DNA of 18,746 nt. It comes from Candidatus Phoenicimicrobium oleiphilum (GTDB taxonomy: Bacteria; Atribacterota; Phoenicimicrobiia; Phoenicimicrobiales; Phoenicimicrobiaceae). A program made the position numbers and the translations under genes. The DNA is taken from NCBI GenBank assembly GCA_039638295.1, contig JBDIWJ010000036.1:1520-20265 (forward strand), given 5' to 3'. The notes beneath the pieces were generated by a model. That model saw nothing but the letters and a program-made list of their open reading frames with translations. It was not told the DNA's origin and searched no databases. Of the stretch, positions 15-18,661 are shown in pieces. Position 1 is the first letter of the stretch. Each line of letters opens with the position of its first letter.

Positions 15-69
15 CACTATTCACTATCGACTAATTTAATTGGCAAATTGGAGAATTGGAGAATCGGTT
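15..69. repeat. Heptamer array plus octamer array
   Basis: CACTATT-CACTATC-GACTAAT (15-35); AATTGGCA-AATTGGAG-AATTGGAG-AATCGGTT (38-69). Confidence 0.8.
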
Positions 70-71
70 AA

Positions 72-695
72 TCAAATATAAGGATTTGTCCTTCTTTCCT
101 CACCTATAGTGGAATCAGGACCATGTCCAGGATAAATTATTTTATCATCACTTAATACTAGCAATTTTTCTTTAATCGATTTTTGTAAATCCTGGTAAGA
201 ACCACCCGGTAAATCAGTTCTACCCACCCCACCTGCAAATAATGTATCACCCGTAAAAACAATGTTATTGAGAATAAGGCAAATACCTCCAGGAGTATGG
301 CCTGGCGTATGAATTATTATTAACTTTAATTTACCCAAAGATATCTCATCTCCCTCCTCCAAAAAACTATCTGCCGGAGGAGAACATCTTTTATTGCCCA
401 TAAAAATAGAAAAATTCTTATTGACATCATTTAACATAGGGGCATCTAATTTATGGATCAATAACATAGCTTTAGTTTTTTCCTTCAATACTTTATTTCC
501 AGCAATATGATCTATATGCCCATGAGTATTTATAATATATTCTAAATTAAAATCATTATCTTGTAAATTTTTTAAGATTAAATCGACCTCTTCTTCCCCT
601 CCTGGGTCAATTACTGCTGCTTTTTTAGTCTTTTTACACGCAATTAGATAACAATTGGTTTCTAATGGTCCTACTACCAATCTTTTTAAGAACAT
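72..695 (-). CDS. MBL-fold metallo-hydrolase (glyoxalase II/YcbL-like)
   Basis: THGHIDH (HxHxDH) motif, HTPGHTPG, FTGDTLF and YPGHG motifs; usual position downstream of rel-dtd. Confidence 0.93.
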   Translation of the reverse strand: MFLKRLVVGPLETNCYLIACKKTKKAAVIDPGGEEEVDLILKNLQDNDFNLEYIINTHGHIDHIAGNKVLKEKTKAMLLIHKLDAPMLNDVNKNFSIFMGNKRCSPPADSFLEEGDEISLGKLKLIIIHTPGHTPGGICLILNNIVFTGDTLFAGGVGRTDLPGGSYQDLQKSIKEKLLVLSDDKIIYPGHGPDSTIGEERRTNPYI

Positions 696-773
696 TTCGC
701 CATAATCCTTTCATTAGTTAAATATTTTTTAAGGTCTTTGCTTATTTCTTTTTATTTTTGGATGAAATAATCT

Positions 774-1778
774 TTAATAAAAATCACCTAAAATAGATTT
801 TGTTACTTTACTTATTTTTTTTAACACGTGAGGATAATTAGTAATAATCCCATCAACTCCATACAAAACAAAACGCAATATATCCATATCTTGATTAACT
901 GTCCACACATATATAGTCTTGTCCCTCTGATGTAAATATGAAACAAGCTTTTTTGTTCCCCAAAAATAGTGTGGATTTAATCCATCCAATCTATTAATAT
1001 AACTTTTGGGAATTATTGGCTTAGCAAAGAGCAGGTTCACTTTAAGTTGAGGATATCTTTCTTTTAACAAAATCGCAGTATCTCTATCAAAACAAGAAAA
1101 AAGAATACTATTATATCCAAAGTTCTCTGTCTCTTTAATTAATTTATCTATAATTCCAGGATAAATTCTTTCTCCACCTTTAATCTCAATATTTACAAAA
1201 AGTTTCCCTTTTAAAACATTAAGTACTTCACTAAGTAAGGGGATACGCTCATTATAGTATGACCTTATTGTTTCTCCTTTTAAATCCAATACTTCTTTCT
1301 TCTTAATTTTTAATTGTCTAAAACCTATTTTTTCTCCCTCAATTCGGGGAAAAATTAACTTTTTTACTTTATCAAATTGTTTACCATCCCAATGTAAATA
1401 AAAGCTAATCTTTCTTTTATTAATTTGCTCAAAAATATTAAGATAAAATACATTATTTTGAATTGCTCTTAATTCCATAAAATAAATTTTTTCTTCAGGT
1501 AATTTCTTCAATAATTTTTCTTGTTCTCGAGTAAAAAATTCAGAAATATCATATTCTTTTAATTCTTTAAAAGTAAGTTGGTTAATTAAAACTTTTTGTC
1601 CGGTTAATCTTTTTAAATCTGTATCATGAATCACTACTAACTGGCCATCCTTAGTAAGATGAACATCCAACTCAACTCCATCTATCCCCAATTCAACTGC
1701 TTTTTTAAAACCGGAAAGGCTATTTTCAGGGGCAATTCCTTTGGCTCCTCTATGTCCGATAACAAGGGGTATTTCCAT
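774..1778 (-). CDS. Glycerophosphodiester phosphodiesterase (GDPD/GlpQ-UgpQ family) with a ~90-aa internal insertion
   Basis: IGHRGA...PENS, ELDVHLTKDG..VVIHD, ERIP-L-EVL, NIEIK, WTVN and GVDGIITNYP motifs. Start moved to the ATG at 1778, preceded by GAGGAGG. Confidence 0.92.
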   Translation of the reverse strand: MEIPLVIGHRGAKGIAPENSLSGFKKAVELGIDGVELDVHLTKDGQLVVIHDTDLKRLTGQKVLINQLTFKELKEYDISEFFTREQEKLLKKLPEEKIYFMELRAIQNNVFYLNIFEQINKRKISFYLHWDGKQFDKVKKLIFPRIEGEKIGFRQLKIKKKEVLDLKGETIRSYYNERIPLLSEVLNVLKGKLFVNIEIKGGERIYPGIIDKLIKETENFGYNSILFSCFDRDTAILLKERYPQLKVNLLFAKPIIPKSYINRLDGLNPHYFWGTKKLVSYLHQRDKTIYVWTVNQDMDILRFVLYGVDGIITNYPHVLKKISKVTKSILGDFY

Positions 1779-1821
1779 TTTTTTCCTCCTCGAATAAACC
1801 ATTTTAATTATGTTAATGCTT

Positions 1822-2271
1822 TTAAAATAACTTTTCGCTATCTAACAAAATTGTAACCGGGCCATCATTATAAATTTTTACCAACATCATTGCTTGGAAC
1901 TCTCCGGTTTCTACTTTAAGACCATAATTTTTTATACATTTTATAAAGTAATTATATAATTTTACCGCTTTTTCTGGAAGAGCTGCAGAAATAAAGCTCG
2001 GACGTCTTCCCTTTTTACAATCCCCATATAAAGTAAATTGAGATATCACTAAAATTTGGCCTTTTATATCTTTAATAGAAAGATTCATTTTCCCCTGTTT
2101 ATCTTCAAATATTCGTAAATTTGCTATTTTCTCAGCTAAATATTCTGCATCTTTTTCCTGGTCATTCTGTCCTACGCCTAACATGATTACTAAACCTTGC
2201 CCTATTCTACCCACTTCTCTATTCTCAATCTCTACTGCTCCCTCTTTTACTCTTTGCACTACTGCCCTCAT
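1822..2271 (-). CDS. dtd: D-aminoacyl-tRNA deacylase
   Basis: MRAVVQRV N-terminus, SQFTL, GRRPSF and NDGPVT motifs; GGAGG before the ATG at 2271; directly follows rel. Confidence 0.97.
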
Positions 2272-2316
2272 TCTTATTTCCTCCAAATATTGATAGCCTG
2301 CACTAAACACTTTAGG

Positions 2317-4446
2317 CTAAAAATTTTCTATTCTTTTTATAGACAAAACACTCTTTACTTTTTTTATACTTTTGACTATTTCTTGAAATTGTTTTAAACT
2401 ACTAACAGAGAAATTAATGTCTATAGTAGCAATCCCCCTTTTATTAGTTATAGCATGTATTGCATTGATTGAGATTTTATAGTTGGAAAAGATCAACATA
2501 ATATCAGAAACTAAACTTGCTCTATCGTCAGCAATTATCTTTATTTTTACTGGAAAAAATAATTCTTCAGTTTTCAGCCATTCTACTTTTACTAAACGAT
2601 CTTTGTCAGAAGAGATAATATTAATATTAGAACATCCTATTTTATGTATAGACACTCCTCTTCCTCTAGTAATATAACCAATGATTCTATCGCCAGGTAC
2701 AGGATTGCAGCATCGGGCAAATCTTACCAGTACTTCATCGATTCCTTCAACTCTTACACCTTGCTCAATTCTTTTTTTTAATTTGACCGGGGGGATTACT
2801 GGGGGAATTCTTTCCTGGGGAATTATTTTAGATAAAACCTGATACGGGGTTAGTTTTCCATATCCAATGTTCTCAAACATTGTTTCTAACTCAGAAAAAC
2901 CTAATTCAATACATATATCATTCAACTTTTTAGTAAGTTCAGCAGAGGATTCTATTCGTAACCTTTCCATTTCTTTTTCAAAAATTTCCCTACCCTTTTG
3001 AATATTCTCCTCTCTCATCTCCTTTTTAAACCAGGCCCTGATTTTATTCTTTGCTCCTGATGTTTTAACCACTTTTAACCAATCTCTACTAGGACCTCGA
3101 CTTAATTTAGAAGTCAATATTTCCACTATATCTCCACTTTTCAACTTATAATCTAATGGTACTATCTTTTTATTAACCTTGGCTCCTACACAACTATGTC
3201 CTACATCTGTATGGATGAGATAGGCAAAATCAATCGGGGTAGATCCCGCAGGTAATATTTTTACGTCCCCTTTGGGGGTAAAAGTAAAGACTTCGTCCTG
3301 AAAAAGACCAATTTTTAAGTTTTCCATAAATTCTCTCGGATCCTTTAAATCTTTTTGCCATTCTAATATCTGTCTCAACCAGGAAAGTCTTTCTTCAATT
3401 TTTTTATCTTTTTTAAAATCCACCTTTTCCTTGTACTTCCAATGAGCAGCTATTCCATATTCAGCAGTACGATGCATGTCCCAAGTACGAATCTGAATCT
3501 CTAAAGGCTCTCCCTGCGAAGTGATTACAGTAGTATGTAGAGACTGATACATATTTGATTTAGGCATAGCAATATAATCTTTAAATCGTCCAGGCATAGG
3601 TTTCCAAATTGAATGTAATAACCCTAAAACCGCATAACAATCTTTAATAGAATTGCAAATTACCCTGATCGCAACTAAATCATATATCTGGAAAAAATCT
3701 TTTTCTCTCTCTTCCATCTTTTTATAAATACTGTATATATTTTTGGGTCGACCCTGGATTTCAGCTTCTATGTTTACCTTTTGCAATTCCTTTTTTATAG
3801 ATTCTTTTATCGATTCAACATATTTCTCTCTTTCTAATCGATTTTTCGCAATTCTATTAACCACTGCTTTATATTTCATTGGCTCTAAATAACGTAGAGA
3901 AAGGTCTTCTAATTCCCACTGAATCCTGGAAATACCTAACCTATTAGCAATAGGAACATATATTTCCAAAGTTTCTCGGGATATTCTTGCCCTTTTAAAA
4001 GGAGGAACATATTGCAAAGTCCTCATATTGTTAAGACGGTCTGCTAACTTTATCAGAATAACTCTTACATCTTCAGCCATTGCTAAAAACATCTTACGAA
4101 AATTCTCAGCTTGTTGTTCCTCGAGAGTCTTAAAAGAAATCCTGCTTAATTTAGTAACTCCATTAACCAACATTGATATTTCTTCACCAAATTCTTCTTT
4201 TATTGTAGCTAATTGGGTAGGGGTATCCTCCAATATATCATGTAAGATTCCGGCTGTAATGGTGATTACATCAAGTTCCAAATCAACTAGTATTTTAGCC
4301 ACCTCTAAAAGATGTAGAATATAAGGTTCCCCAGAATATCTATTTTGATTCTTGTGAGCCTTTACAGCATATCTATAAGCATTTTTTATTAAGCTTAAAT
4401 CAGCCTGGGAAGCATATTCAGGTATTTTTTTTAAAATATATTTCAT
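2317..4446 (-). CDS. relA: Bifunctional (p)ppGpp synthetase/hydrolase (long RSH, Rel)
   Basis: HD hydrolase motifs (RYSGEPYILH, LHDILED, KLADRLNNMRTL), synthetase RFKDY and YQSLHT, TGS domain (TPIDFAY..HT), CCNP zinc-finger region, C-terminal ACT. Exact start is uncertain. Confidence 0.97.
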   Translation of the reverse strand: MKYILKKIPEYASQADLSLIKNAYRYAVKAHKNQNRYSGEPYILHLLEVAKILVDLELDVITITAGILHDILEDTPTQLATIKEEFGEEISMLVNGVTKLSRISFKTLEEQQAENFRKMFLAMAEDVRVILIKLADRLNNMRTLQYVPPFKRARISRETLEIYVPIANRLGISRIQWELEDLSLRYLEPMKYKAVVNRIAKNRLEREKYVESIKESIKKELQKVNIEAEIQGRPKNIYSIYKKMEEREKDFFQIYDLVAIRVICNSIKDCYAVLGLLHSIWKPMPGRFKDYIAMPKSNMYQSLHTTVITSQGEPLEIQIRTWDMHRTAEYGIAAHWKYKEKVDFKKDKKIEERLSWLRQILEWQKDLKDPREFMENLKIGLFQDEVFTFTPKGDVKILPAGSTPIDFAYLIHTDVGHSCVGAKVNKKIVPLDYKLKSGDIVEILTSKLSRGPSRDWLKVVKTSGAKNKIRAWFKKEMREENIQKGREIFEKEMERLRIESSAELTKKLNDICIELGFSELETMFENIGYGKLTPYQVLSKIIPQERIPPVIPPVKLKKRIEQGVRVEGIDEVLVRFARCCNPVPGDRIIGYITRGRGVSIHKIGCSNINIISSDKDRLVKVEWLKTEELFFPVKIKIIADDRASLVSDIMLIFSNYKISINAIHAITNKRGIATIDINFSVSSLKQFQEIVKSIKKVKSVLSIKRIENF

Positions 4447-4507
4447 TAAAGTTAATTGAGAAATAATTTACACCTTCTTTATTGATCAAAAGTGAATAGA
4501 GCCTAAT

Positions 4508-4752
4508 CAGTATATAGTATTTAGTTGTTACATAACATAGAGCTGGTAGCGTTTAGCGTATAGTTTTAGATTAATAAGATACTTATCCTATACCCAGCTG
4601 TTTTTACGAACACATGGTTTTTCAGTATCTTGACTAACAAGTTAGATGGGTCAGACCCCTACATAGACAGTCGAGATGTCTGTCCTATGGAGTATATGTT
4701 TTTGCATTCTGATAAGTTTACTCTGCTCTATGTATTTCCAATTAACGACTAA
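4508..4752. repeat. Composite palindrome-rich element in the apt-rel spacer
   Basis: Terminal IR ACATAGAGC (4535-4543)/GCTCTATGT (4725-4733); inner IR AAGATACT (4576-4583)/AGTATCTT (4624-4631); GGGTC-A-GACCC (4648-4658); CATAGACAG/CTGTCCTATG (4662-4689); TAGCGTT-TAGCGTA heptamers. Confidence 0.65.
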
Positions 4753-5271
4753 TCAATCATACTGTACTATGGAAAAGATATTATATCCTTTCAATTTCTC
4801 CCTGGGATTTAAAAATTCGAGTTCGATTATAAAAGAAGCTCCCACAACTTCTCCACCTAATTTTTCAATCAGTTTAAACACCGCTGCAGTAGTACCTCCG
4901 GTAGCCAAAAGGTCATCAATCACCATAATTTTATCACCATTATTTATGGCATCTTTATGAATTTCTAAAATATTCTCACCATATTCTAACTGATAAGATA
5001 CTCTTTCAACTTCACTGGGAAGTTTTTCAGGCTTTCTAATAGGTAAAAATCCTACCCCTAATTGATAAGCAACGGGAGCACCTATAATAAAACCACGGGC
5101 TTCTATTCCCGCAATATAATCAATTTGATATTTTTTACAATATTCGATTATTTTATCAATACTATATTTAAAGGCATCTTTATCTTTTAATAGAGTCGTA
5201 ATATCTTTAAATTGAATGCCCTTTACCGGAAAATCTGGAATATTCCTGATTTTTGTTTTTAAATCTATCAC
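4753..5271 (-). CDS. apt: Adenine phosphoribosyltransferase
   Basis: IPDFP..GIQFKDIT, EARGF, LEYG and VIDDLLATGGT PRPP-binding loop; GTG start after GGAGG. Confidence 0.97.
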   Translation of the reverse strand: MIDLKTKIRNIPDFPVKGIQFKDITTLLKDKDAFKYSIDKIIEYCKKYQIDYIAGIEARGFIIGAPVAYQLGVGFLPIRKPEKLPSEVERVSYQLEYGENILEIHKDAINNGDKIMVIDDLLATGGTTAAVFKLIEKLGGEVVGASFIIELEFLNPREKLKGYNIFSIVQYD

Positions 5272-5285
5272 TTTTTATCTGCCTC

Positions 5286-7031
5286 CTAAAAAATATTTTT
5301 TATATCTTTTATATTTAATTGAATATTTTCTAAGCCATTCCATTTGTTCATTTCAATGTTAAAAGCTAAATCTGCTACCTTACTCTCCGAAAATATCTGG
5401 TTTCCTCCTTTGTATAATCCAAATCCAATCCCGTCAAATACCTTATTCTTATCCATAATTTTCAGTTTCAGGTGTTCTCTATTTTCGCCAACCACCCTCC
5501 AATCTGATATCATATTATTATAACTACAAAAAATAGGTTGAGGATTCCCTAAACCAAATGGTTCTAAGTTATTTATATCTTTAATTAAGCTAAGATTAAT
5601 ATCACTTAATGAAAGTTGAGCATCCACTTCTAATCCAGGAATTAAATCACTTTCTTTAATATAATTTTGAGCTATTTCATTAATTCTTGATTTAAATTTA
5701 GAAATTTGATTACAATCTATAGTGATACCCACAGCATATTTGTGCCCACCAAAATTTATTAAAATATCTTTGCAGGTTTCCAGGGCTCGATATAAGTGAA
5801 AGCCTTTGGTACTCCGCCCAGACCCTTTTCCGGTTCCGTCTTCTTTAGAAATAACTATGGCAGGCCGATTAAATTCATCTACTAACCTGGAAGCTATTAT
5901 TCCGATGACGCCCTGGTTCCAGCCTTCCGATGAAAGAACTAATATTTTGTTATTCTCTTCTTCTATTTGCTTAAAAGCAAGCCCTCTTGCTTTTTTTAAA
6001 ATATTATCACCAATATCTCGTCTGGATTTATTTATTTCATTCAATTTTTTTGCTAAAAATTCAGCTTTGGAAGGAGAATCAACCAACAATGATTCTAAAG
6101 CTAATTTAGGGTCACCCAATCTTCCTGCTGCATTTAACCTTGGGGCAAGAGCAAAATTAATCTCTTTAGTATTTAAATCTCCATAATCTACTCCGCTTTC
6201 CAACATTAATGCCTTTAAGCCTTCTCTCTTAGTTTGGTTAAGTACTTTTAATCCATGTTTAATTAAAATACGATTTTCATCGAGAAAAGGTACAGAATCA
6301 GCAATTGTTCCTAAAACCACGTAATCAAGGAAACTGTATAAATCTTCTTGTCTCTTTTTCAACTTTTCATATAGAGCTTGGGCCACTTTAAAACATACCC
6401 CTACTCCAGCTAACTCTTTAAAGGGATAACTTTCATCATACTGGGGGTTTATTATGCTTATTGCAGAAGGTATTTCTTTTTGTGGCTTATGATGGTCAAT
6501 TATAATAACATCTATACCATAGTTCTCTGCCTTTGCTACCTCATAAACAGAACTAATTCCACAGTCAACAGTGATAATTAATGTAAAATCATTTTGATTA
6601 GCCAGGTCTACAACCTTTTCATTCAATCCATATCCTTCTTTGAATCGGTTAGGTAAATAGTAGTATAAATTAGAAGTAAGTTCCTTTAAAATTGAAAATA
6701 ACAGAGCTGTACTTGTTATACCATCAACATCATAGTCTCCAAAAATTAATATTCTTTCCTCGTTGTTTATCGCTTTTAATATTCTATCAATAGCTTTTTC
6801 CATATCCTTAAAAGAATAAGGATCTCTTAAATCTTTGAAATCAGACTTTAAGAATTTTCGAGCACTTGTTAATTCTCTTATCCCCCTATTTATTAATAAT
6901 TGAGACAAAATTGGAGAAATATTTAACTCTTTTGCTAATGCTATCTGTAATTTTTTATCTTCTTTTAAGATATGCCATTCTATTTTATCTACACTCCCTC
7001 CTTGTTTCTCGTATCGCGTATCGCGTATCAC
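5286..7031 (-). CDS. recJ: Single-stranded-DNA-specific exonuclease RecJ
   Basis: GDYDVDG, TVDCG, IDHH, APRLNAAGR, GSGRS and GGH motifs of DHH/DHHA1 domains. Start is ambiguous (see findings). Confidence 0.96.
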   Translation of the reverse strand: MIRDTRYEKQGGSVDKIEWHILKEDKKLQIALAKELNISPILSQLLINRGIRELTSARKFLKSDFKDLRDPYSFKDMEKAIDRILKAINNEERILIFGDYDVDGITSTALLFSILKELTSNLYYYLPNRFKEGYGLNEKVVDLANQNDFTLIITVDCGISSVYEVAKAENYGIDVIIIDHHKPQKEIPSAISIINPQYDESYPFKELAGVGVCFKVAQALYEKLKKRQEDLYSFLDYVVLGTIADSVPFLDENRILIKHGLKVLNQTKREGLKALMLESGVDYGDLNTKEINFALAPRLNAAGRLGDPKLALESLLVDSPSKAEFLAKKLNEINKSRRDIGDNILKKARGLAFKQIEEENNKILVLSSEGWNQGVIGIIASRLVDEFNRPAIVISKEDGTGKGSGRSTKGFHLYRALETCKDILINFGGHKYAVGITIDCNQISKFKSRINEIAQNYIKESDLIPGLEVDAQLSLSDINLSLIKDINNLEPFGLGNPQPIFCSYNNMISDWRVVGENREHLKLKIMDKNKVFDGIGFGLYKGGNQIFSESKVADLAFNIEMNKWNGLENIQLNIKDIKNIF

Positions 7032-7275
7032 GTTTGTTTCCCCCTCACCCCTCTAAACCCTCTCCCTAAAAGGGGAAAGGGAGCAAAGATTCCTCCTCTT
7101 TTAATTTTATCTGTCTGCTAAACCCTGGACGCTCTATATCAACCTGCGAGATACGATTCACGAGATACAAGATACGAATTCATCCTGACTTCTGGCTCCT
7201 ATCTTTCCTTCCTTAAACCAGCTAACCAGGTTACTAACCAACTAACCAATTCTATCCGCTAAATGTTATATGCTA
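7010..7275. repeat. Stack of tandem arrays in the recJ-DUF2905 spacer
   Basis: CGTATCG x2 plus CGTATCA (7010-7030); GAGATAC-GATTCAC-GAGATAC-AAGATAC (7148-7175); TCCTGAC-TTCTGGC-TCCTATC (7183-7203); AACCAGCT-AACCAGGT...AACCAACT-AACCAATT (7216-7251); CTATCCG-CTAAATG-TTATATG (7252-7272). Confidence 0.88.
7040..7083. repeat. BoxC-like pyrimidine/purine palindromic element
   Basis: CCCCCTCACCCCTCTAAACCCTCTCCCTAAAAGGGGAAAGGGAG: a C-rich tail followed by a CCCTCTCCC/GGGGAAAGGG hairpin. It resembles enterobacterial BoxC-type repeats as I recall them; not searched. Confidence 0.65.
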
Positions 7276-7314
7276 GAATACGAAAATATAATTTTTCTTT
7301 TGCTTTTACGTTTT

Positions 7315-7536
7315 TTAATGTCTAAACAGGCGAAAAATGATGGTTAAAATAATGCTTAGTAAAATACATAAACCTAAAGGGAAGTAAAAAATAAAATTTT
7401 TTCTTTGAATTATAATGTCTCCAGGTAACCTCCCAGAAAAAGGTAATTTTCCTGCCAATAAAAATATTGCTCCCATTATAATTAATATTATCCCAAAAAA
7501 AAGAAGAGTTTTGCCAAATAGGTTAAATTCTGACAT
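7315..7536 (-). CDS. DUF2905-family small membrane protein
   Basis: GRLPGDIII..NF.FYFPL signature between two hydrophobic segments; AGGTG before the ATG at 7536. Confidence 0.88.
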   Translation of the reverse strand: MSEFNLFGKTLLFFGIILIIMGAIFLLAGKLPFSGRLPGDIIIQRKNFIFYFPLGLCILLSIILTIIFRLFRH

Positions 7537-7561
7537 TTTTATCACCTATTTTGTTTTAAAA

Positions 7562-8479: not shown

Positions 8480-8503
8480 CAAATACATCCTCCTTAACTA
8501 TAT

Positions 8504-9694: not shown

Positions 9695-9771
9695 ATAAAA
9701 ATCCTCTCTTTCTAATTTTTTCCTATCTTTTTGTCTTTAAATAATTTAAAATCCCGTTTATTAACTTAATA

Positions 9772-9801: not shown

Positions 9802-9840
9802 CGATAAGAACAACTAAGATGTTAATATACAAAAATATAA

Positions 9841-9870
9841 AGGCAGGTATAATAAAATGAATACCTGCCT
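9841..9870 (-). terminator. Probable intrinsic terminator after yajC
   Basis: Perfect 10-bp inverted repeat AGGCAGGTAT/ATACCTGCCT with a 10-nt loop, followed on the minus strand by TTATATTTTT. Confidence 0.75.
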
Positions 9871-9929
9871 CTCTATTATTGGGGTTATATATGTCTCTAT
9901 ATACTTTTTCCCCTTTTTAGATTATTTTT

Positions 9930-10190: not shown

Positions 10191-10238
10191 TTTTATTTAT
10201 CACGCCTTTCTTTTTTTATTTTAAAAAATATCGTTTAA

Positions 10239-10267
10239 ATTATACACAATTTAATTTTATTTGGCAA
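10239..10267 (-). promoter_or_regulatory. Sigma70/SigA-type promoter for yajC
   Basis: TTGCCA (10267-10262), 17-nt spacer, TATAAT (10244-10239). Confidence 0.7.
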
Positions 10268-10356
10268 ATTATTTTTATATTTTTCCAACACGAAACCCGC
10301 CGATACACAATACATGATAACAGTATATTCTGTCTTCCAGCTACTTTTAATGTTAT

Positions 10357-11466
10357 TTAACTCAAAAAATTGGTAAGGGATTCTTCTTTAAATTCTAATA
10401 ATCTATCTTCTAATAACGCTAATCTTATATTTTTCATTAAATTAGACATAAAATAAAGATTATGGATAGTCCCCAGAATTGAACCAAGCATTTCCTTAGA
10501 AGTATATAAATGACGGAGATAGGCTTTAGTGAAATTCTGACAGGTATAACACTGGCATTTATCATCTAAGGGAGTGAAATCATTTTTGTATTTAGCATTG
10601 GTTATGGTTAATTTACCAGAAGAGGTAAACAAAGAACCGTTTCTTCCATTTCTAGTAGGGAGAACACAATCAAACATATCAATCCCCCTTACAACTCCTT
10701 CTAATATACTCTGCGGAGCTCCTACCCCCATTAAATATCGAGGTTTACTGATTGGCAAACAAGGTACTGTATAATCCAAAACTTCATACATTAAAGATTT
10801 TGGTTCGCCTACACTTAATCCTCCTATGGCATAACCCGGAAAGTCTAATTCTACTAATTTATTAGCATTCTCAATCCTTAAATCTTTAAAGGTGCCTCCC
10901 TGAACAATTCCAAATAAACTCTGATTAGTGCTATGATGTGCTTCTTTGCATCTCTTTGCCCATTGAATAGTCCTTCGAGCAGCAATTTCTACCTGATATT
11001 TCCCCGAAGGGTAAGGAGTACATTCATCAAAAGCCATTGCGATATCAGAACCCAAGGCCATCTGGATTTCCATAGCCTTTTCAGGATTTATAAAATGCCT
11101 TGAACCATCAATATGAGAATTAAAAAATACTCCATCATCATCTACTTTATTTAACTCCCCTAAACTAAAAATCTGAAACCCACCACTATCAGTTAATATG
11201 GTCCCTCTCCAGCCCATAAACTTATGCAATCCACCAGCTTGAGCAATCAAATTATATCCGGGCCTTAAATATAGATGATAAGAATTACTCAGGATAATCT
11301 TAATTCCCAGCCTTTCTAATTCTTGAGGAGTCATAGCTTTAACTGTTGCTTGAGTACCTACTGGCATAAATACTGGAGTTTCAATTGCCCCATGAGGAGT
11401 AAATAACTTCCCTAATCTTGCATTTGTATTCTTACATTCCTTAATAATTTCAAATTTAATAGACAA
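10357..11466 (-). CDS. tgt: tRNA-guanine(34) transglycosylase
   Basis: [39 protein letters not shown] and CQCYTC...H zinc site; TTG start after GAGGT. Confidence 0.98.
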
Positions 11467-11503
11467 ATGTATATAACCTCTTAATTCACATTTTTAAATT
11501 ATG

Positions 11504-11656
11504 CGAATATTGTATTTCGTATATCACATATAGTAAAGATGGTAATACGGTTAGCCAGTTTGCCGCTTACCCAGTCAAAGAATTAAAATCGACTTTCTTA
11601 ACTATGTAACTGGTAAACAGGGTAACTGGGTAACTAATACGCGATACTATATACTA
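11504..11656. repeat. Nested inverted 7-mer/8-mer arrays in the tgt-queA spacer
   Basis: CGAATAT-TGTATTT-CGTATAT-CACATAT, then ..CCAGTT octamers, spacer, then TAACTGG octamers and AATACGC-GATACTA-TATACTA. Perfect IR TTACCCAGT (11567-11575)/ACTGGGTAA (11625-11633). Confidence 0.8.
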
Positions 11657-11660
11657 ACAA

Positions 11661-12689
11661 TTATACAATCATCATCGAATCTCCAAAGCTATAAAATCTA
11701 TATTTTTCTCTTATTGCCTCTTGATATGCTTTAAAAATAAAATCCTTTCCGGCAAAAGCAGCTGAAAGCAATAAAGGGGTTGATTGAGGAAGATGAAAAT
11801 TAGTAATTAACACATCTACTATTCTAAATTTATAACCAGGGTAAATAAACATATTAGTCCAATTATTACCAATTAAAATTCCATCTTTATTAAAATTAAC
11901 AGCAGACTCTAAAGTACGAGTTGTGCTAGTTCCAACCGAAATAACTCGTCTCTTTTCACTACGAGCACAATTAATCTTTTGTGCAACATCTGGGGAGATA
12001 GAATAAAATTCTGAAGACATTTTATGCTTTTCTATTTCAGAAACTCTTATAGGTTCAAAAGTTCCTCGACCAACATGAAGAGTTATATAAACTATTTCTA
12101 TACCTTTGTTCTTAAGTTCTTTTAATAAAGGTTTAGTAAAATGAAAACCAGCGGTGGGAGCAGCAATTGAACCATCTTGAACCGCAAAAACCGTTTGATA
12201 ATCATCCCTTTCCTTCAATTCTTCTTTGATATAAGGAGGAGTAGGCATCTTTCCAATTTTTTTTAATATTTCTTTAAAGTCACCAGCAAAACTAAATTCG
12301 ATAATATAACTACCTTTTTTTTCATCCTTAGCTTTAACTATTCCACTTAATTCATTACCAAAGATTATTTTAGTTCCGTTATAAATGTTTTTGCCAGGCT
12401 TAATCAAAATTTCCCAGCATATATCGTTTAAAGATTTAAGCAGTAATATTTCTACTTTTCCTTTAGTTTTTTCTTTAATACCAAAGATCCTGGCGGGTAT
12501 AACTTTAGTATTGTTTAAAACTAAAAGATCCCCCTCTTTTAGATAATTTCCAATATTTTTAAAAATGTCATGTTTAATTTCTTTTTTTAACCTGTGCAAA
12601 ACCATTAAACGACTGTGATCTCTTGGCTTAATTGGCTTTTGTGCAATAAATCCAGGAGGAAGATAATAATTAAATTCTTCTAATTTCAT
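11661..12689 (-). CDS. queA: S-adenosylmethionine:tRNA ribosyltransferase-isomerase
   Basis: IAQ.P, N.TKVIPAR, PPYI, YQTVFA, AAPTAGFHF, TLHVG, TNFHLP and YRFYSFGD motifs. Confidence 0.98.
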   Translation of the reverse strand: MKLEEFNYYLPPGFIAQKPIKPRDHSRLMVLHRLKKEIKHDIFKNIGNYLKEGDLLVLNNTKVIPARIFGIKEKTKGKVEILLLKSLNDICWEILIKPGKNIYNGTKIIFGNELSGIVKAKDEKKGSYIIEFSFAGDFKEILKKIGKMPTPPYIKEELKERDDYQTVFAVQDGSIAAPTAGFHFTKPLLKELKNKGIEIVYITLHVGRGTFEPIRVSEIEKHKMSSEFYSISPDVAQKINCARSEKRRVISVGTSTTRTLESAVNFNKDGILIGNNWTNMFIYPGYKFRIVDVLITNFHLPQSTPLLLSAAFAGKDFIFKAYQEAIREKYRFYSFGDSMMIV

Positions 12690-12710
12690 TTCTAATCCAC
12701 TTCTGCAATT

Positions 12711-14123
12711 TCAATATTTTTTAATAATATTTATTCCTTGATAATAATATTTTAATATATCTTGATATTTATAACCTTGAAGAGCCATGCCATAAGCACC
12801 CCATTGAGACATTCCCACCCCATGTCCATTACCAGAACCAGAAAACAAAAAACTTAAAGGAACATATAAGGTCTTAACAGTTTCTACCGTGGTTATTTCC
12901 TGTTCTTTTTCCTGCTCTTTCTCTTTTTTCTCTTCCTCTCTTCTTTTTTTCATTAATTCTATTAATTCATTAATAGTCCATTCTTTTTTTTGCTCCAAAA
13001 TCTCTTTTATTGACTCTTTCTGAATTTGCTTCTCTTTAATTACCTCCTTATTTTCTACATTTTTTAAGTCATTTGATTCCTCTCTTGTTGGGTTAATTTT
13101 AAAAAGTGTACTTCTAATCAGATCTGGTCCAATCAATTTTCTAAAATCGTTAGCTTTTATATGGATAACTTCATTACTCTCAGAAATAAACGCTAATTTA
13201 CTCACTCTGCCAGTTTTAGTCTTTTCAACCGGTTCAATTGAAAGCACAGAATTTATTTTATATCCTTGTTTATTTAATTTATCTACCAATTCTTCTTTGG
13301 TTATTGAATAAATCCAATTATGATGAGGTGGTGAAACAATTTCTTCATATTTTGACTCTACACTTCTTAGATAAGGAACATATTCCCCCCATACGTTTTC
13401 ACTATCTTCAGTATATCCTCCACTGTCAGAATGATATACAGCATTAATTGGTTCTCCTTTATAAACCATAATCAATCCTCTGGTCTCATCAACTGCTCTA
13501 TTAGTTAATGGATCTTCATGGTTTACCCCGCCATAGGCTTGACTATTGGTAGAAGCACAAATATTATAACCTTTATCAATATATTTATTCATATTAAAGA
13601 TAGCAAAAGTTCGGGCAGCAATTGCTTGAGCCTTTAAAACCTCTATGGGCCAGCGCGGGGATATTTCTTTTTTCATAACTCCATAAAGGTACTCTTCAAT
13701 TCCTATTACATTAATTACATCCAACTTTTTATAATCTTTATTAATAACTACCTCGATATTCCCCCTATACCTATACTTTTGACCCTTAATAATGACTATA
13801 ATTTTTGTATCTCCTACTGGAACAATATTTAATAATCCAGAGTAAACTCCTATCCCCAGTACTTCTATTCCTTTTTTATGTGGTAATATCTTAATAATCT
13901 TATTTTTTTCTTCACTTATGAGTCCTTTTGTTTTTAGATTATAAATCTTAAAAGGGCCATCTCCGCTAATATTAACTTCATCTTGATTTAAAAAAATTCC
14001 TACTCGAAGTATAGGCTGTTTTTCTGCTGCTAACATACTATTAGAAAATACAAGCAGTAAAAAAATACAAATTCCTAAAAATAAAAAAATTTTTTTTGTC
14101 TTTCCTCTATCTATTTTTCTCAA
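12711..14123 (-). CDS. SpoIID/LytB-domain protein (putative lytic transglycosylase) with N-terminal signal/TM segment and a charged insertion
   Basis: YRG, EEYLYGV..E (catalytic Glu), LKAQAIAARTFA, YHSDSGG, PYLRSV and GHGVGMSQWGA...ILKYYY; TTG start after GAGGAG. Confidence 0.93.
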   Translation of the reverse strand: MRKIDRGKTKKIFLFLGICIFLLLVFSNSMLAAEKQPILRVGIFLNQDEVNISGDGPFKIYNLKTKGLISEEKNKIIKILPHKKGIEVLGIGVYSGLLNIVPVGDTKIIVIIKGQKYRYRGNIEVVINKDYKKLDVINVIGIEEYLYGVMKKEISPRWPIEVLKAQAIAARTFAIFNMNKYIDKGYNICASTNSQAYGGVNHEDPLTNRAVDETRGLIMVYKGEPINAVYHSDSGGYTEDSENVWGEYVPYLRSVESKYEEIVSPPHHNWIYSITKEELVDKLNKQGYKINSVLSIEPVEKTKTGRVSKLAFISESNEVIHIKANDFRKLIGPDLIRSTLFKINPTREESNDLKNVENKEVIKEKQIQKESIKEILEQKKEWTINELIELMKKRREEEKKEKEQEKEQEITTVETVKTLYVPLSFLFSGSGNGHGVGMSQWGAYGMALQGYKYQDILKYYYQGINIIKKY

Positions 14124-14200
14124 CTAATTTATCTCCTCTTTCAATTCTTCGTTCGTGTTTCTTTCTTAAAATATCTTATGATGGCATTATAACCGAGATT

Positions 14201-14294
14201 TTTTTACATTTTTACCTTTATATTTCCCTTTCTTTTTTCTTTCCTCATCACTACACTGCTGTGATACTATACGCAATCCGCTGGACACTCTACG
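14201..14294. repeat. Degenerate octamer and heptamer arrays in the spoIID-ruvB spacer
   Basis: TTTTTACA-TTTTTACC (14201-14216); CTATACG-CAATCCG-CTGGACA-CTCTACG (14267-14294). Confidence 0.55.
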
Positions 14295-14303
14295 ATTGCT
14301 TTA

Positions 14304-15332
14304 CTACAACAATTTTCCCTGAACATCCTCTTTTCTTTTCTTGCCAAAATATTTATAAGTTAAATCTGTTGCTACTCTTCCCTTGGGGGTTCGATGAAGA
14401 AAGCCCCTTTGTAAAAGATAAGGTTCATATACATCGCTAATAGTATCAGCATCTTCACTGATGGAAGCTGCTAATGTTTGCAGTCCTACAGGCCCACCTG
14501 AAAATTTTTCTATTATAGTCAGTAGTAATTTTTTGTCTACATCACATAAGCCAAAACTATCAATTTCCATCATCTTTAAGCCAAAATCAGCAATTTCTTT
14601 AGTAATAACACCTTGACCTTTTATTTGGGCATAATCACGAAGCCTTCGTAATAGTCTATTGGCAATACGAGGAGTTCCTCTTGACCTCTCTGCGATTTTC
14701 TTGGCTGCTTCTTTGGTTATTCCAACTTTTAAAATTTGAGAAGATCTCATCACTATCTGCTCTAATTCATTTTCTTGATAGTAACCAACTCGAGTTATAA
14801 CCCCGAAACGACTTCTTAAAGGCGAGGTAATTAATCCTGTACGAGTAGTTGCTCCGATAAGAGTAAATTTTGGTAAGCTTATACGAATAGAACGCGCGCT
14901 CGGACCTTTACCAATTAAAATGTCTAATTCGAAATCTTCCATGGCTGGATATAATATTTCCTCTACTGCCCGATTCAATCGGTGAATCTCATCTATAAAT
15001 AAAACATCATTCTCTTGTAGATTGGTAATTATTGCTGCTAAATCTCCTGCTCTTTCTATTACTGGTCCAGAAGTCATCTTAATATTTACCCCCATTTCAT
15101 TGGATATTATATAAGCTAAGGTAGTTTTTCCTAAACCTGGGGGGCCATATAAAAGAATATGATCAATAGGTTCCTTTCTTTTTCGCGCAGCACTGATGTA
15201 AATTTTAAAATTCTTTCTAATATTTTCCTGACCAATAAATTCTGTAAATAATTTTGGCCTTAAATTTATATCTAAATCTGGTTCTTCTTTTCTCAACCCT
15301 AAATCAATAGTTTTTTCTTTTTTAAATTCCAT
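14304..15332 (-). CDS. ruvB: Holliday junction branch migration helicase RuvB
   Basis: LRP, Walker [12 protein letters not shown], Walker [27 protein letters not shown] and RTPKGR. Confidence 0.98.
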
Positions 15333-15414
15333 TAAATTTCTCCATTAAAGTTTATAATAAAATCTACTAGAATGATTATAATAGTCCATACATAAAACTA
15401 TTAATGACTAAAAT

Positions 15415-16005
15415 TCATCTAATAATTTTTAAAGATTCTTTAATTAGTTCTTCAAGAGTTAATTCCCGATTAATTTTTTCTTGAGTTTTTTCCACCGCCA
15501 TTTTTGCTTTTTTATAAGTATAACCCAATGCTTTAAGGGCATCTATAGCATCGTCTATAATCCCTGGTTTATATTTTTTTTCTAGACCTACCTCAAAAAG
15601 AGTGGTCTTACTTATCTTTTCCTTTAGTTCTAATACAATTTTTTTTGCTAACTTATTACCAACTCCAGCTATCGTAGTAATTGAATCCAAATCTTCTTGT
15701 AAAATTGCTTTTTTAAAATCATCGGGAGTCATTTTGGATAGAATACTCAAACCCACTTTTGGACCAATACCTGGTGTACTAATTAGTAATTCAAAAAAAT
15801 TTTCTTCCTCCTTAGTAAAAAATCCATAAAGCATTATTTTATCTTCTCTTAAATATAGATAAGTATAAATTTTAGTTTTATCACCGACTTTTATAGGAAG
15901 ATTATTATAGGTGGGAATATTAATTTGATAGCCTATATTGCCTATGTTTAATATAAGATAATTTATTCCGACTGTATCAACTATTCCTTCCAGAAAAGAT
16001 ATCAA
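15415..16005 (-). CDS. ruvA: Holliday junction branch migration protein RuvA
   Basis: GY.I, LRED..LYGF, GIGPK and GVGNKLA HhH motifs, AL.ALGY. Start set to the TTG at 16005 after GGAGG. Confidence 0.96.
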   Translation of the reverse strand: MISFLEGIVDTVGINYLILNIGNIGYQINIPTYNNLPIKVGDKTKIYTYLYLREDKIMLYGFFTKEEENFFELLISTPGIGPKVGLSILSKMTPDDFKKAILQEDLDSITTIAGVGNKLAKKIVLELKEKISKTTLFEVGLEKKYKPGIIDDAIDALKALGYTYKKAKMAVEKTQEKINRELTLEELIKESLKIIR

Positions 16006-16025
16006 ATTTAGACCTCCCATAATAA

Positions 16026-16194
16026 TAGTTAGCTGGTTTGGTGCTAATTATTCAACTAATTAACCAAGTGACTAACTAACCAACTAACTAATTCTTAGTG
16101 ATATACGATTTATGAAATACGATAAATAAATTTGATTCCTGATTTTAGTTTTCTACTCTCTTAACACGATACGCAATACGCGATACTCGATACT
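16026..16194. repeat. Stack of tandem arrays in the ruvA-ruvC spacer
   Basis: CAACTAAT-TAACCAAG-TGACTAAC-TAACCAAC-TAACTAAT (16053-16092); GATATAC-GATTTAT-GAAATAC-GATAAAT (16100-16127); CGATACG-CAATACG-CGATACT-CGATACT (16167-16194). Confidence 0.88.
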
Positions 16195-16197
16195 TAT

Positions 16198-16668
16198 TTA
16201 ATACTTAGTATGCACATGACATATTGCTACAGCTAAAGCATCTGCGGCATGGTCAGGGCGAGGAATTTCGGGTAAATTGAGCAGGATTTTAACCATTGAT
16301 TGAACCTGGAACTTATCTGCTCTTCCATTTCCTACAGTTGCCTGCTTGACCTGTAGGGGAGTATATTCATAAAGCTCTAACCCGATTAAGGAAACGGTTA
16401 AAGCTACCGCACCACTCACTTTGCTCACCATAAGTGCAGTCCGAGTATTTTTATTAAAAAATATCTCTTCTATAACCACTTCATGGGGTTTATGTTTTTC
16501 AATAATTTCCTTTAGCCCATAATATATCTTTTCTAATCGAACCTTAAAGGTGTCTTTTTTATCAGTAGTTATGCAACCATAATCAATTAGAACAATTTCT
16601 TTCTTCTCATACTGAATTAGACCATACCCAATATGGGTAAGCCCAGGATCAATACCTAATATAATCAC
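16198..16668 (-). CDS. ruvC: Crossover junction endodeoxyribonuclease RuvC
   Basis: ILGIDPG, IEEIFF, EYTPLQVK, G.GRADK.QV and DHAADALAVAICH; GTG start overlaps the yebC stop (GTGA). Confidence 0.97.
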   Translation of the reverse strand: MIILGIDPGLTHIGYGLIQYEKKEIVLIDYGCITTDKKDTFKVRLEKIYYGLKEIIEKHKPHEVVIEEIFFNKNTRTALMVSKVSGAVALTVSLIGLELYEYTPLQVKQATVGNGRADKFQVQSMVKILLNLPEIPRPDHAADALAVAICHVHTKY

Positions 16669-17429
16669 GATTTGTTCCTACTTGTTGATATTTCTTCCAT
16701 AATTTTGTCATCTATATTAAAGTTAGCATAAACTTTTTGTACATCATCATGATCTTCTAATTGTTCCATTAAGTTAAGCATTTGCATCGCTTTTTTACCC
16801 TCTAAATCTATTGTAGTTTTAGGAATTAAAGTAATTTCTTTTAGTAAACAATCGATATTATGTTCTTTTAACAAATTATCAAAACTTTCATAATTTTCAG
16901 GTATGGTAATCACTTCAATATTTTGTTTATCAGTTCGCACATCTTCAGCTTCAGCTTCAAGAGCTAAATCAATAATTTTTTCTTCATCTATTGCTTCTTT
17001 TTCAAAGATAAAATAACCTCTTTTATCAAACATCCATGCAACGCAACCATTCTCGCCTAAATTACCACCGTTCCTGGAAAATATTTTTCTGATTTCTGGG
17101 GTTGTTCGATTTTTATTATCAGTTAAGGCTTCTACCAAAACTGCCACCCCTCCTGGACCGTAACCTTCATACACTACTTCTTCATAAGATACTCCTGCAA
17201 TTTCACCAGTTCCTCTTTTAATCGCTCTTTCAATATTTTCATTAGGCATATTATTTTCTTTTGCTAATTGGATAGCAGTTTTTAGTCTCACATTAGTTTC
17301 AGGGTCTCCTCCTCCTGAACGAGCAGCAACAGTTATTAGTCTAATTAATTTAGTAAACAATTTACCCCTTTGAGCATCCATTTTACCTTTCTTTCTCTTA
17401 ATTGTGCTCCATTTTGAATGACCAGACAT
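16665..17429 (-). CDS. yebC: YebC/PmpR family protein
   Basis: MSGHSKW, YEGYGPGG, TDNKNRT and DDVQKVYAN motifs; AAGGAG SD. Confidence 0.96.
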   Translation of the reverse strand: MSGHSKWSTIKRKKGKMDAQRGKLFTKLIRLITVAARSGGGDPETNVRLKTAIQLAKENNMPNENIERAIKRGTGEIAGVSYEEVVYEGYGPGGVAVLVEALTDNKNRTTPEIRKIFSRNGGNLGENGCVAWMFDKRGYFIFEKEAIDEEKIIDLALEAEAEDVRTDKQNIEVITIPENYESFDNLLKEHNIDCLLKEITLIPKTTIDLEGKKAMQMLNLMEQLEDHDDVQKVYANFNIDDKIMEEISTSRNKS

Positions 17430-17488
17430 AATTTATTTCTCCTTGAATATAAAATTAATAAAACTTTAATTGCGATTAATTTTAAATA

Positions 17489-17517
17489 ATTTTAGCATAT
17501 TAAAAGAGTAGTTTCAA
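17489..17517 (-). promoter_or_regulatory. Sigma70/SigA-type promoter for yebC-ruvCAB
   Basis: TTGAAA (17517-17512), 17-nt spacer, extended -10 TGcTAAAAT (hexamer 17494-17489). Confidence 0.7.
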
Positions 17518-17523
17518 TAATAT

Positions 17524-17551
17524 AGTATCGCGTATTGCGTATCGAGTATCG
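17524..17551. repeat. Heptamer array upstream of the yebC promoter
   Basis: AGTATCG-CGTATTG-CGTATCG-AGTATCG. Confidence 0.88.
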
Positions 17552-17742
17552 CCTGAAGAAAAAGAATTAGAGAAAAAAATAAAAACCATCCACCCCTAGA
17601 CCAGATCAGACTTTCACTGTTAAAACAGGTAACAAACTCCCCAAAAACCCCTCTACGCCTTTTGTTAATTCTTTTCGTTTTATGTTTTACCATTCCTGCT
17701 TCTGACAAACTTGTTAGAATCCATTCCTTATTCAGAAAAGAA

Positions 17743-17793
17743 TTTATTTTAGAGCATCGGAATTTTTTTGAAATACCGATGCTCTAAAATAAA
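17743..17793 (-). terminator. Long hairpin / probable terminator after nadE
   Basis: Perfect 18-bp inverted repeat TTTATTTTAGAGCATCGG (17743-17760) / CCGATGCTCTAAAATAAA (17776-17793), about 20 nt past the nadE stop, followed by TTCTTTTCT on the minus strand. Confidence 0.75.
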
Positions 17794-17812
17794 AGATATG
17801 CAGTATATTTAT

Positions 17813-18535
17813 TTAAAAGGTAGGTTTTTCAGGAATAGTTCGTTTATGTGCACTTTTATTTATTTTGTCTTGAATTTTTTTTTCTATCATTTTATTGTTT
17901 AATTTTCCAGTTCTCAAATATTCATCTATCTGTTTGTAACTTATTCCTATTTCTGCCTCATCGGTTTGACCTTCCCAAAGGCCAGCAGAAGGGGGTTTTT
18001 GGATAATTTCTTGAGGTATTTCTAAATATTCTGCTAATTCTACAACCTGACTCTTTAGTAAATTACCTAAGGGTAAAATATCTACTCCTCCATCACCATA
18101 CTTGGTAAAATATCCAATTGTTAACTCACTTTTATTTCCCGTTCCCACAACTATATAATTTAATTTATTAGCAAAATAATATAAAGTTATCATTCTTAAT
18201 CGGGGTTTTATGTTTGCCTTTTCTAATTTAAAATTTATATTTTTTTCCTCGCCATCTAATAAAGATATAAATGAATCATAAATTTTTGATAAATCAATTA
18301 TTTTATAATAAATATCATATTTTTCAGCAAAACTTACTGCATCTTCAATATCTTTACTTATACTGTGACAGGGCATAATTAAGGCTAAAGTATTATCAGG
18401 AAACACTTTTTTACATAGGATTGCTACCACGGCAGAATCAATGCCTCCACTTAGTCCTATTACCACTCCTTTAGCTTTTGCACTAATCACCTTATTTTCT
18501 ATCCAATTACTTAATTTTTGCGTTAAAGTTTTCAT
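17813..18535 (-). CDS. nadE: NH3-dependent NAD+ synthetase (no glutaminase domain)
   Basis: GLSGGIDS loop, N.KPRLRM, GTGNKSE..GYFTKYGDG, PSAGLW.GQTDE and HKR. Start set to the ATG at 18535 after GAGGAG. Confidence 0.96.
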   Translation of the reverse strand: MKTLTQKLSNWIENKVISAKAKGVVIGLSGGIDSAVVAILCKKVFPDNTLALIMPCHSISKDIEDAVSFAEKYDIYYKIIDLSKIYDSFISLLDGEEKNINFKLEKANIKPRLRMITLYYFANKLNYIVVGTGNKSELTIGYFTKYGDGGVDILPLGNLLKSQVVELAEYLEIPQEIIQKPPSAGLWEGQTDEAEIGISYKQIDEYLRTGKLNNKMIEKKIQDKINKSAHKRTIPEKPTF

Positions 18536-18564
18536 AAATTGAACTCCTCTATAATTCCCCAATA

Positions 18565-18661
18565 AATCAATTCACCAATTTACCAATTAATTAGTCGTCA
18601 GTGTATCGTATTGCGTTAAAAAAATCATAATTCAGAAACGGAGATGTGATGCATCGTCTCC
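18565..18661. repeat. Octamer/heptamer arrays and REP-like palindrome upstream of nadE
   Basis: AATCAATT-CACCAATT-TACCAATT (18565-18588); GTATCGTATTGCG (18603-18615); GGAGATGTGATGCATCGTCTCC (18640-18661). Confidence 0.65.

Follow-up and report, generated by a model that had tools for sequence, protein, structure and literature searches.

The window considered here is an 18,746-nucleotide segment of the genome of Candidatus Phoenicimicrobium oleiphilum (assembly GCA_039638295.1, contig JBDIWJ010000036.1; G000:C36:1520-20265, where G000 is the genome of the window, C designates its contigs, L with a number a related locus, and G012 another genome). The genome has a size of 1.65 Mb and a GC content of 33%, and is 91% complete. 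Its closest relatives belong to the Atribacterota/Caldatribacteriota, with 80-85% identity of Tgt. All genes of the window are on the minus strand: nadE, yebC, ruvC, ruvA, ruvB, a SpoIID/LytB-domain gene, queA, tgt, yajC, secD, secF, a gene for a 76-residue protein without an NCBIfam hit, recJ, apt, relA/spoT, dtd, a glycerophosphodiesterase-like gene, and a gene with the metallo-β-lactamase (MBL) fold. The spacers between them contain tandem arrays of 7- and 8-nucleotide units, which an earlier note had reported for nine spacers. Seven are clear (15-75, 4477-4563 with 4742-4751, 7005-7285, 11504-11656, 16026-16194, 17525-17552, and 18552-18617); the arrays at 10303-10323 and 14201-14238 are weak, and the latter segment is mostly A/T-rich. 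The arrays are one-sided arms and not independent microsatellites. With a probability of roughly 80%, they are the stacked leftovers of mobile cassettes of the type that encodes four-helix-bundle (FHB) proteins of the family TIGR02436.

The enrichment of periods 7 and 8 that the earlier note had expected in intergenic DNA is found throughout the genome. Under a criterion of 14 comparisons with at most two mismatches, the intergenic DNA of G000 holds 135 arrays of period 7 and 87 of period 8; three dinucleotide shuffles yield 2-3 and 2-5, respectively, and the other periods from 4 to 13 give 6-21 arrays. The densities are 0.53 (period 7) and 0.34 (period 8) per kb in intergenic DNA, and 0.017 and 0.004 per kb in the first 400 coding segments, where arrays are 30-80 times rarer. 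The small vocabulary of units recognized earlier maps in its entirety onto the repeat units of the FHB clades described below. The CG dinucleotides that had been noted in the units are a property of some families; they do not occur in TAATGAG, TAGTTAGC, AATTCACC, or CAGAAGT.

The genome of the window contains two intact TIGR02436 genes and one fragment. Both intact genes, C3:956-1316 (TAGTATA type) and C43:7673-8039 (CAGAATT type), are bracketed by an array and its reverse complement. Of the 1437 open reading frames (ORFs) of G000, 14 were flagged as lying between matched facing arrays. Small genes of the orphan type are represented in this group by the two FHB genes alone; the other 12 are larger or of the housekeeping type. 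The gene family that had been sought between facing arrays is TIGR02436. In a cassette, a left arm is followed by a leader rich in purines, one ORF with a length of about 120 residues, and a right arm, which is the reverse complement of the left one and often overlaps the end of the ORF. The arms have a median length of about 4.5 units of 7 or 8 nucleotides. Cassettes are located close behind the stop codon of a host gene and are read in the same direction as this upstream gene, which was co-directional in all 40 cases in which it was identified (31 were not identified). The downstream neighbor is co-directional in 34 of 38 cases, and all four exceptions represent one site. The flanks are protein-coding genes, not 16S or 23S rRNA genes. 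The FHB protein of G000 matches the structure 2GSC with an E value of 1e-22. Proteins of this type, which have the Xcc0516 fold, are homopentamers related to Avd (PMC10053308, PMC4990558).

The pairing of arms was quantified in two sets of cassettes. In the family set, 90 of the loci listed for the family and the second copy of G000 were reduced to 71 full-length, non-duplicate cassettes, in 59 of which both arms could be scored. The left unit is the reverse complement of the right one, with at most one difference, in 37 of the 59; shuffling gives a mean of 6.9 and a maximum of 15. The second set, of 189 cassettes, adds top-scoring loci from other families of Atribacterota and from the groups around L076 (Syntrophobacteraceae), L078 (Brocadiaceae), and L073 (Cloacimonadales). 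It spans four phyla and, being composed of top hits, is biased towards canonical FHB genes. Inverted arrays flank 145 of these 189 full-length genes, compared with 38 for the direct orientation and 17-21 for shuffled partners. The period is 7 in 106 of the 145, 8 in 32, 9 in six, and 6 in one. A short motif, GACGACYGAARGGAGTC, follows stacks of right arms and precedes start codons at L184, L193, L197, L223, L229, and L233. In the MSDYK-type FHB clade, the motif is directly repeated, with one copy before the gene and one at its end, and the arms of both flanks are of the right type.

Each clade of the FHB tree has its own repeat unit: TAGTATA/TATCGAG, TCGTATA, TATCGCG, TATCTCG, TAGTCGT/TAGTGAA, TAATGAG, TAGCGTA, CAGAAGT/CAGAATT, and AAAGCGC, with the 8-nucleotide units on a separate branch. 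Several clades are found at two to five different pairs of flanking genes, and therefore do not represent one orthologous locus. Judged from the sequences, the repeat period is fixed per cargo clade, because a single FHB clade in the order of L078 (L312, L316, L318, L319, L323, and L325) has 9-nucleotide units, and cassettes with GxxExxY genes have units of 9-10 nucleotides. Between phyla, the similarity of units climbs from 0.45 to 0.54 with protein identity. For the nearest FHB protein from another phylum, it is 0.564, compared with 0.488 +/- 0.017 expected by chance (n = 45, with pairs that are not independent). FHB genes occur in 26 of the 29 genomes of the same family (f1) other than G000, in 17/22 of family f2, 5/11 of f3, and 0/23 of f4-f7. 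A three-unit GTAT-type pattern has the distribution 29/29, 17/22, 3/11, and 0/23 in the same groups, with a reversed-pattern control near zero. A TIGR02436 search in five single genomes of other phyla found little.

Strict unit patterns taken from filled (gene-bearing) cassettes detect 360 arms in 209 of the 955 spacers of G000, compared with 4-8 in shuffles. The process would, by this count, have touched at least one-fifth of all spacers in this lineage. Arms are present in 182 of 830 co-directional, 16 of 64 divergent, and 11 of 61 convergent spacers, at 1.81 per kb of intergenic DNA and 0.015 per kb of coding DNA. The earlier note had noticed no units inside conserved coding regions; arms do, however, overlap the C-termini of FHB genes, and in at least 16 spacers the first TAG of the left arm is the stop codon of the upstream gene. 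The units had also been described as occurring in both orientations, and these are the orientations of left arms and of their reverse-complement right arms. A left arm precedes a right arm in 224 cases and follows it in two (1195 spacers of G000 and relatives), and the ratio is 103:1 in the strict-pattern count of G000. The arms thus face inwards, and no cassettes lie side by side. The order was also considered as a polarity relative to transcription, a reading that was rejected, since the order left-then-right is obtained from either strand of an inverted pair. Arms of both sides are present in 49 of 182 arm-bearing spacers, most of which have one side only. Left arms outnumber right ones, an imbalance that may be artificial and result from 5' ends extended by ORF calling.

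Cassettes appear to be nested, because double arm pairs are nested in two cases and crossed in none, the innermost arm fits the clade of the cargo in six of seven multi-arm flanks, and family E lies outside family AC (10:0 among left arms, 6:0 among right arms). Stacks of arms recur with their linkers between unrelated spacers; for instance, the left stack at 15-75 of the window is the reverse complement of a right stack in C32 (88% over 58 bp). Therefore, arms spread as composites too. The spacers C4:70884-71259 and C8:1647-2125 have 219 identical bases in common, which reflects either a very recent duplication or an assembly repeat.

The arrays of the window align to the arms of filled cassettes, to upstream or downstream ones as the side of the spacer predicts; they are described here, on the minus strand throughout, by strict-pattern matches, flank alignment, or direct reading. 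At the low-coordinate end, a left arm of the 8-nucleotide family I8 (CCAATTCT-type, 43-75) begins at the stop codon of the MBL-fold gene and scores 45 against L187, where the best shuffled scores are 20-25. Inner to it is a left arm of family E (TAGTCGT/TAGTGAA, 15-33), which matches the upstream arm of the FHB cassette L188. Upstream of relA, one or more right arms of E/A type (4477-4529; strict patterns and flank alignment) are followed by a right arm of family G (CTATACG/CTAAACG, 4538-4563) matching the downstream arm of L249. A short E-type left arm, read directly, adjoins the apt stop (4742-4751).

The richest stack lies between recJ and secF. Close upstream of recJ, a right arm of family C (three to four CGCGATA units, 7005-7034) scores 50 against L182. 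Inside the heptamer stack is a GC-rich palindromic arm (7037-7085), which by eye resembles the upstream flanks of DUF559 genes in relatives (L407-L409). A left arm of family D (TATCTCG, 7147-7186) scores 65 against L237 and contains the variant unit GTGAATC at a position identical to that in filled cassettes. It is followed by a left arm of family M/N (CAGAAGT, corresponding to the TCCTGAC of the earlier note; 7183-7200, strict patterns), the unit of which also flanks the FHB gene C43:7673-8039. A left arm of the 8-nucleotide family H8 (GTTAGTTG/GTTAGCTG, previously given as AACCAACT) occupies 7216-7250 by flank alignment. A degenerate family G left arm (7251-7285), read directly and clearer in L103 and L107, stands behind the stop of the small gene 7315-7545. 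This gene, between secF and recJ, encodes the 76-residue protein, which is membrane-protein-like and presumably carries the label DUF2905. The gene is located after ruvB in L004-L006 and was not found at the secF-recJ place in several relatives.

After tgt, three degenerate GTAT-type heptamers (10303-10323) were read directly, and no cassette flank matched them above the cut-off. Upstream of tgt, strict patterns and flank alignment identify a right arm of family B (CGATATA-type, 11504-11535) and, close behind the queA stop, a left arm of family A (TAGTATA/TATCGCG, 11637-11656). Between them is a facing pair of 8-nucleotide arms (11550-11640), GTTACCCA-type on the left and AACTGGGT-type on the right, from flank alignment and direct reading. 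The degenerate family G left arm (TAGCGTA-type) after the ruvB stop (14253-14294) is weak here and clear in the orthologous spacers of L095, L100, and L103. Behind ruvC, 16026-16097 comprises an H8 left arm (16054-16097) and a short H8 right arm (16026-16045), a module that is also present in C10 and C19 of G000. It is followed by a degenerate B/D left arm (16103-16124; flank alignment) and, close behind the ruvC stop, by a left arm of family A/C (four TATCGAG/TATCGCG units, 16152-16194; strict patterns and flank alignment). A right arm of family C (four CGATACT/CGCGATA units, 17525-17552; flank alignment) lies close upstream of a promoter-like site of yebC. At the far end, a right arm of C/E type (18594-18617; strict patterns and flank alignment) is accompanied by an I8 right arm (18552-18589; flank alignment and direct reading) that reaches into the ribosome-binding region of nadE. 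In L084, L085, L087, and L089, a putative 5S rRNA gene is positioned close upstream of nadE, and the last 110 bases of the window are unlike it.

The gene-less arms could have arisen without cassettes, as satellites born by slippage that grow on their own in intergenic DNA as filler, with FHB genes lodged among them. Such an origin would account for arms being far more numerous than genes, for gene-less stacks common to several spacers, and for the variable lengths of orthologous spacers. Across 25 related loci, the queA-tgt spacer measures 26-492 bp, tgt-yajC 89-438 bp, and ruvC-ruvA 110-439 bp; the array-free neighboring spacers remain short (spoIID-queA 20-65 bp, recJ-apt 1-14 bp). Run X15 also has 21 extra bases at 4748, three units of seven in phase, in a single contig with a depth of 3.8. 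However, for runs X3, X7, and X12 the contigs list no change in array length, although contigs drop rare variants. Growth by slippage does not predict the left-right matching, one unit per clade, the coupling across phyla, the fixed variant units, or the 224:2 order. Slippage is therefore largely refuted as the origin, for which it is very improbable, and may still describe later changes of the arms.

Filled and empty states of the same site were found genome-wide, in agreement with part of the earlier view of the arrays as empty sites or scars. At each of 12 sites, an FHB gene of a relative lies between flanking genes that stand 124-267 bp apart in G000 without a gene between them; one of the 12 holds an FHB remnant in G000. 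At two of the sites, different clades fill the spacer in different genomes, or the arms in G000 belong to another family. At L212, a GxxExxY gene lies between inverted 10-nucleotide arrays, and its G000 counterpart is a bare 14-bp spacer. G000 contains four FHB remnants that are 87-94% identical to intact genes; a fifth candidate, a 31-bp match, consists of arm sequence only and was rejected. The remnant C3:31150-31300 retains the arm, the leader, and the start and end of the gene, and its middle is deleted between short direct repeats. The gene losses look like ordinary internal deletions, not precise excision. Two contig joints were considered as excision products: one, with 22 letters on its shorter side, leaves out the FHB gene at L196, and the other leaves out the queA-tgt spacer. 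Both were rejected, because other copies of the arms or other organisms can explain them. The alaS-like gene C43:8079-10740 and its neighbors form a hot region, with FHB cassettes of relatives on either side; next to C43:12266-12917, relatives have an 8-nucleotide-unit FHB cassette or a DUF559 cassette.

The positions of the arms also invite the view that they are domesticated, periodic binding sites of a host protein, involved in nucleoid structure or transcription-translation coupling, that regulate operons. In 75 of 137 spacers, no more than 15 nucleotides separate the first left arm from the upstream stop, other arms adjoin ribosome-binding regions, and several left units provide stops in all three frames. 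However, stops are absent from the units C, D, B, and K, the unit family at one site changes between genomes, and the same spacers are bare in close relatives (the 26-bp queA-tgt spacer and one of about 90 bp between tgt and yajC). A regulatory role has very little probability.

The full account that may connect cassettes and arrays is judged somewhat probable, with less assurance than the cassette-remnant origin itself. Small one-gene cassettes, mostly encoding FHB proteins, would land between the genes of operons, nest, and lose their gene. They would have no promoter and be expressed from the host operon. A clade-specific FHB pentamer with the Xcc0516/Avd fold may bind its own units, approximately one per subunit, and mark or join both ends, so that a host enzyme or one acting in trans could move the cassette. 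New cassettes would tend to land between the arms of older ones, and their genes would then be lost by ordinary internal deletion. Stacks of arms would also be copied between spacers, resulting in the ratio of arms to genes of about 100 to 1 in G000. A wider proposition is tentative, and the odds are against it: these may be widespread, enzyme-less selfish elements whose Avd-like pentamer reads its own end code of 7 or 8 nucleotides, borrows an enzyme, homes into earlier arms, and builds nested, datable stacks. Such elements could be the origin shared by 23S rRNA intervening sequences (IVSs), heptamer repeats, and possibly the Avd protein of diversity-generating retroelements (DGRs).

The same cassettes might instead act at the level of RNA. 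The arms would form an RNase III-type stem in the polycistronic transcript, like that of 23S rRNA IVSs; alternatively or in addition, the cassette would move through an RNA intermediate, with a reverse transcriptase acting in trans and the FHB protein as its Avd-like cofactor. An intact cassette of G000 folds into one long stem that encloses the ORF (z = -3.8), and the invariable co-direction with the upstream gene fits a transcript-level function. The IVS of Coxiella, excised by RNase III, has three tandem heptamers ahead of an S23p ORF of the same protein family (PMC4990558). DGR RNA is bound by Avd, the pentamer of which contacts RNA (10.1101/2023.10.23.563531), and PF05635 is described as resembling Avd (PMC10053308). 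However, mismatches in the arms have no sense-strand G-U bias (84 G-U and 83 A-C), purine-purine mismatches are numerous, and the sense strand is the more stable one in just 40 of 66 cases. The richest spacer of the window is no more stable than its shuffles (z = -1.5), and most arm-bearing spacers are one-sided. An Rfam scan of the window gave no match at the gathering score, including to the Gut-1 RNA motif (RF01706; PMC2864571), and scans for promoters and terminators were overall at chance level. In appearance, the arms are closer to repeated recognition sites than to a stem under selection for pairing; RNA may nevertheless be bound, and action as RNA is considered rather unlikely as an alternative to the cassette account given above.

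Several observations weigh against the derivation of the window arrays from FHB cassettes and against the mechanism proposed. Filled alleles had been expected at the nine spacers of the window in related genomes; comparison of 25 related loci revealed none, nor any FHB remnant, and the longest closed ATG ORF in these spacers encodes 76 residues. No arms were detected at 44 of the 189 FHB genes. No enzyme dedicated to the repeated insertion and removal proposed earlier was found; the N-terminal sequences of the genes between matched arms in G000 include no transposase or recombinase. We know of no catalytic activity of FHB proteins. No target duplication could be called between the strongly diverged bare and filled pairs. 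A column-by-column search in 45 non-redundant cassettes with 7-nucleotide units recovered no residue-to-base code, and the best-scoring alignment columns are subfamily markers only. Therefore, recognition of the arms by FHB proteins stays an inference, not separated from the co-travel of genes and arms. The co-distribution of FHB genes and arrays is confounded both by kinship and by the single unit family used, and some genomes, such as G012, have more than 100 pattern matches and no FHB hit. Direct cases of nesting are few, with two complete arm pairs in only two spacers.

Other genes have flanks of different kinds. Of the families that had been proposed as cargo, FHB and GxxExxY are confirmed, the latter with 9-10-nucleotide arms in relatives (L211 and L212); DUF559 and GIY-YIG genes have GC-rich palindromes instead. 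The palindromic flanks of DUF559 genes in three relatives resemble 7037-7085 of the window. A search of G000, which is 91% complete, identified neither GxxExxY nor DUF559 genes. The two GIY-YIG genes of G000 (C3:13830-14390 and C2:85100-85580) have GTCATT-tagged palindromes on both sides, which include partial copies in tandem (at the C3 gene, about eight of 20 nucleotides each), and GIY-YIG with tagged palindromes is a second cassette type beside that with heptamer arms. A repeat of about 160 bp at 17590-17800 of the window has no relation to the heptamer arms. It contains a AGAGCATCGG...CCGATGCTCT palindrome and has a GGGGAGTT end; it recurs in more than ten other spacers of G000 (72-79% identity) and coincides with a spike in depth. 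An element of about 230 bp that resembles a REPIN (REP, repetitive extragenic palindrome) contains two GTAGGGGCAC-type palindromes. It is present in many spacers with 73-92% identity, including C15:2346-2993 and spacers of C8, C9, C23, and C32.

The window contributes the gene-less end state of the process, with an orphan vocabulary traceable to protein clades, with intermediates of decay, and with stacks that are nested. It suggests, in testable form, where the long-unexplained intergenic heptamer arrays of bacteria come from and what the very common four-helix-bundle/S23p proteins, equally unexplained, do. For a binding assay, the pairs of clade and unit supply proteins with their ligands as well as cross-controls. 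Should the proteins recognize their own arms, they would form a natural family of repeat readers, small and diversified, with kinship to the DGR cofactor Avd. A literature search, with most subscription journals outside its coverage, returned no account of FHB genes flanked by inverted tandem arrays specific to their clade, and the novelty of the system is uncertain.

Short tandemly repeated repetitive (STRR) sequences are intergenic arrays of 7-nucleotide units that form several families in heterocystous cyanobacteria; to our knowledge, they are a descriptive class without a linked gene. The arrays of G000 share with them the intergenic tandem 7-nucleotide units and differ in the pairing of inverted arms and the tracking of FHB clades. 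Miniature inverted-repeat transposable elements have inverted ends around a small cargo, and integron cassettes are single, apparently promoterless genes oriented with transcription. The FHB cassettes resemble the former in their inverted ends and small cargo, but no partner transposase was seen between the arms in G000, and the bare and filled pairs are too diverged for a target-site duplication to be called. They resemble the latter as single, apparently promoterless, oriented genes; however, they are scattered across operons and have no attC/IntI array. FHB proteins and the Avd protein of DGRs are homologous; both form a pentameric barrel of four-helix bundles, which in Avd contacts nucleic acid (PMC10053308; 10.1101/2023.10.23.563531). 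Unlike DGRs, the cassettes consist of a single ORF between host genes, with no reverse transcriptase or template and variable repeats inside; no genome-wide search for reverse transcriptases was made.

Two further systems offer parallels. The REP/REPIN-RAYT systems, which include GTAG and CGTC repeats, similarly have many gene-less intergenic copies and few gene-bearing masters with inverted-repeat flanks (PMC3733652), and REP/REPIN palindromes are located in the same spacers of G000 as the arms. However, the arms described here are tandem arrays of 7 or 8 nucleotides that are not self-palindromic, whereas REPs are tagged palindromes of 20-40 nucleotides, and the flanked gene encodes a small helical protein, not a Y1 transposase. 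The genes between matched arms in G000 are of the FHB or housekeeping type, with no RAYT among them, as judged from N-terminal sequences and not from a Pfam scan. The ORF-bearing IVSs of 23S rRNA genes in Coxiella and Leptospira have the same protein family (S23p/PF05635/TIGR02436) inside an inverted-repeat stem, tandem heptamers beside the ORF, a patchy distribution, and ORF decay (PMC4990558); inserts in rRNA are reported both with and without an ORF (10.1101/2024.02.27.582315). The filled cassettes encode an S23p/PF05635/TIGR02436 protein, and the window has no such ORF. Unlike the IVSs, the cassettes lie between protein-coding genes, their arms are whole clade-specific tandem arrays that are nested, and hundreds of arms are gene-less. 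In its working, the feature is comparable to an ORF-bearing intervening sequence or to an element of the REPIN type, and it belongs to neither class.

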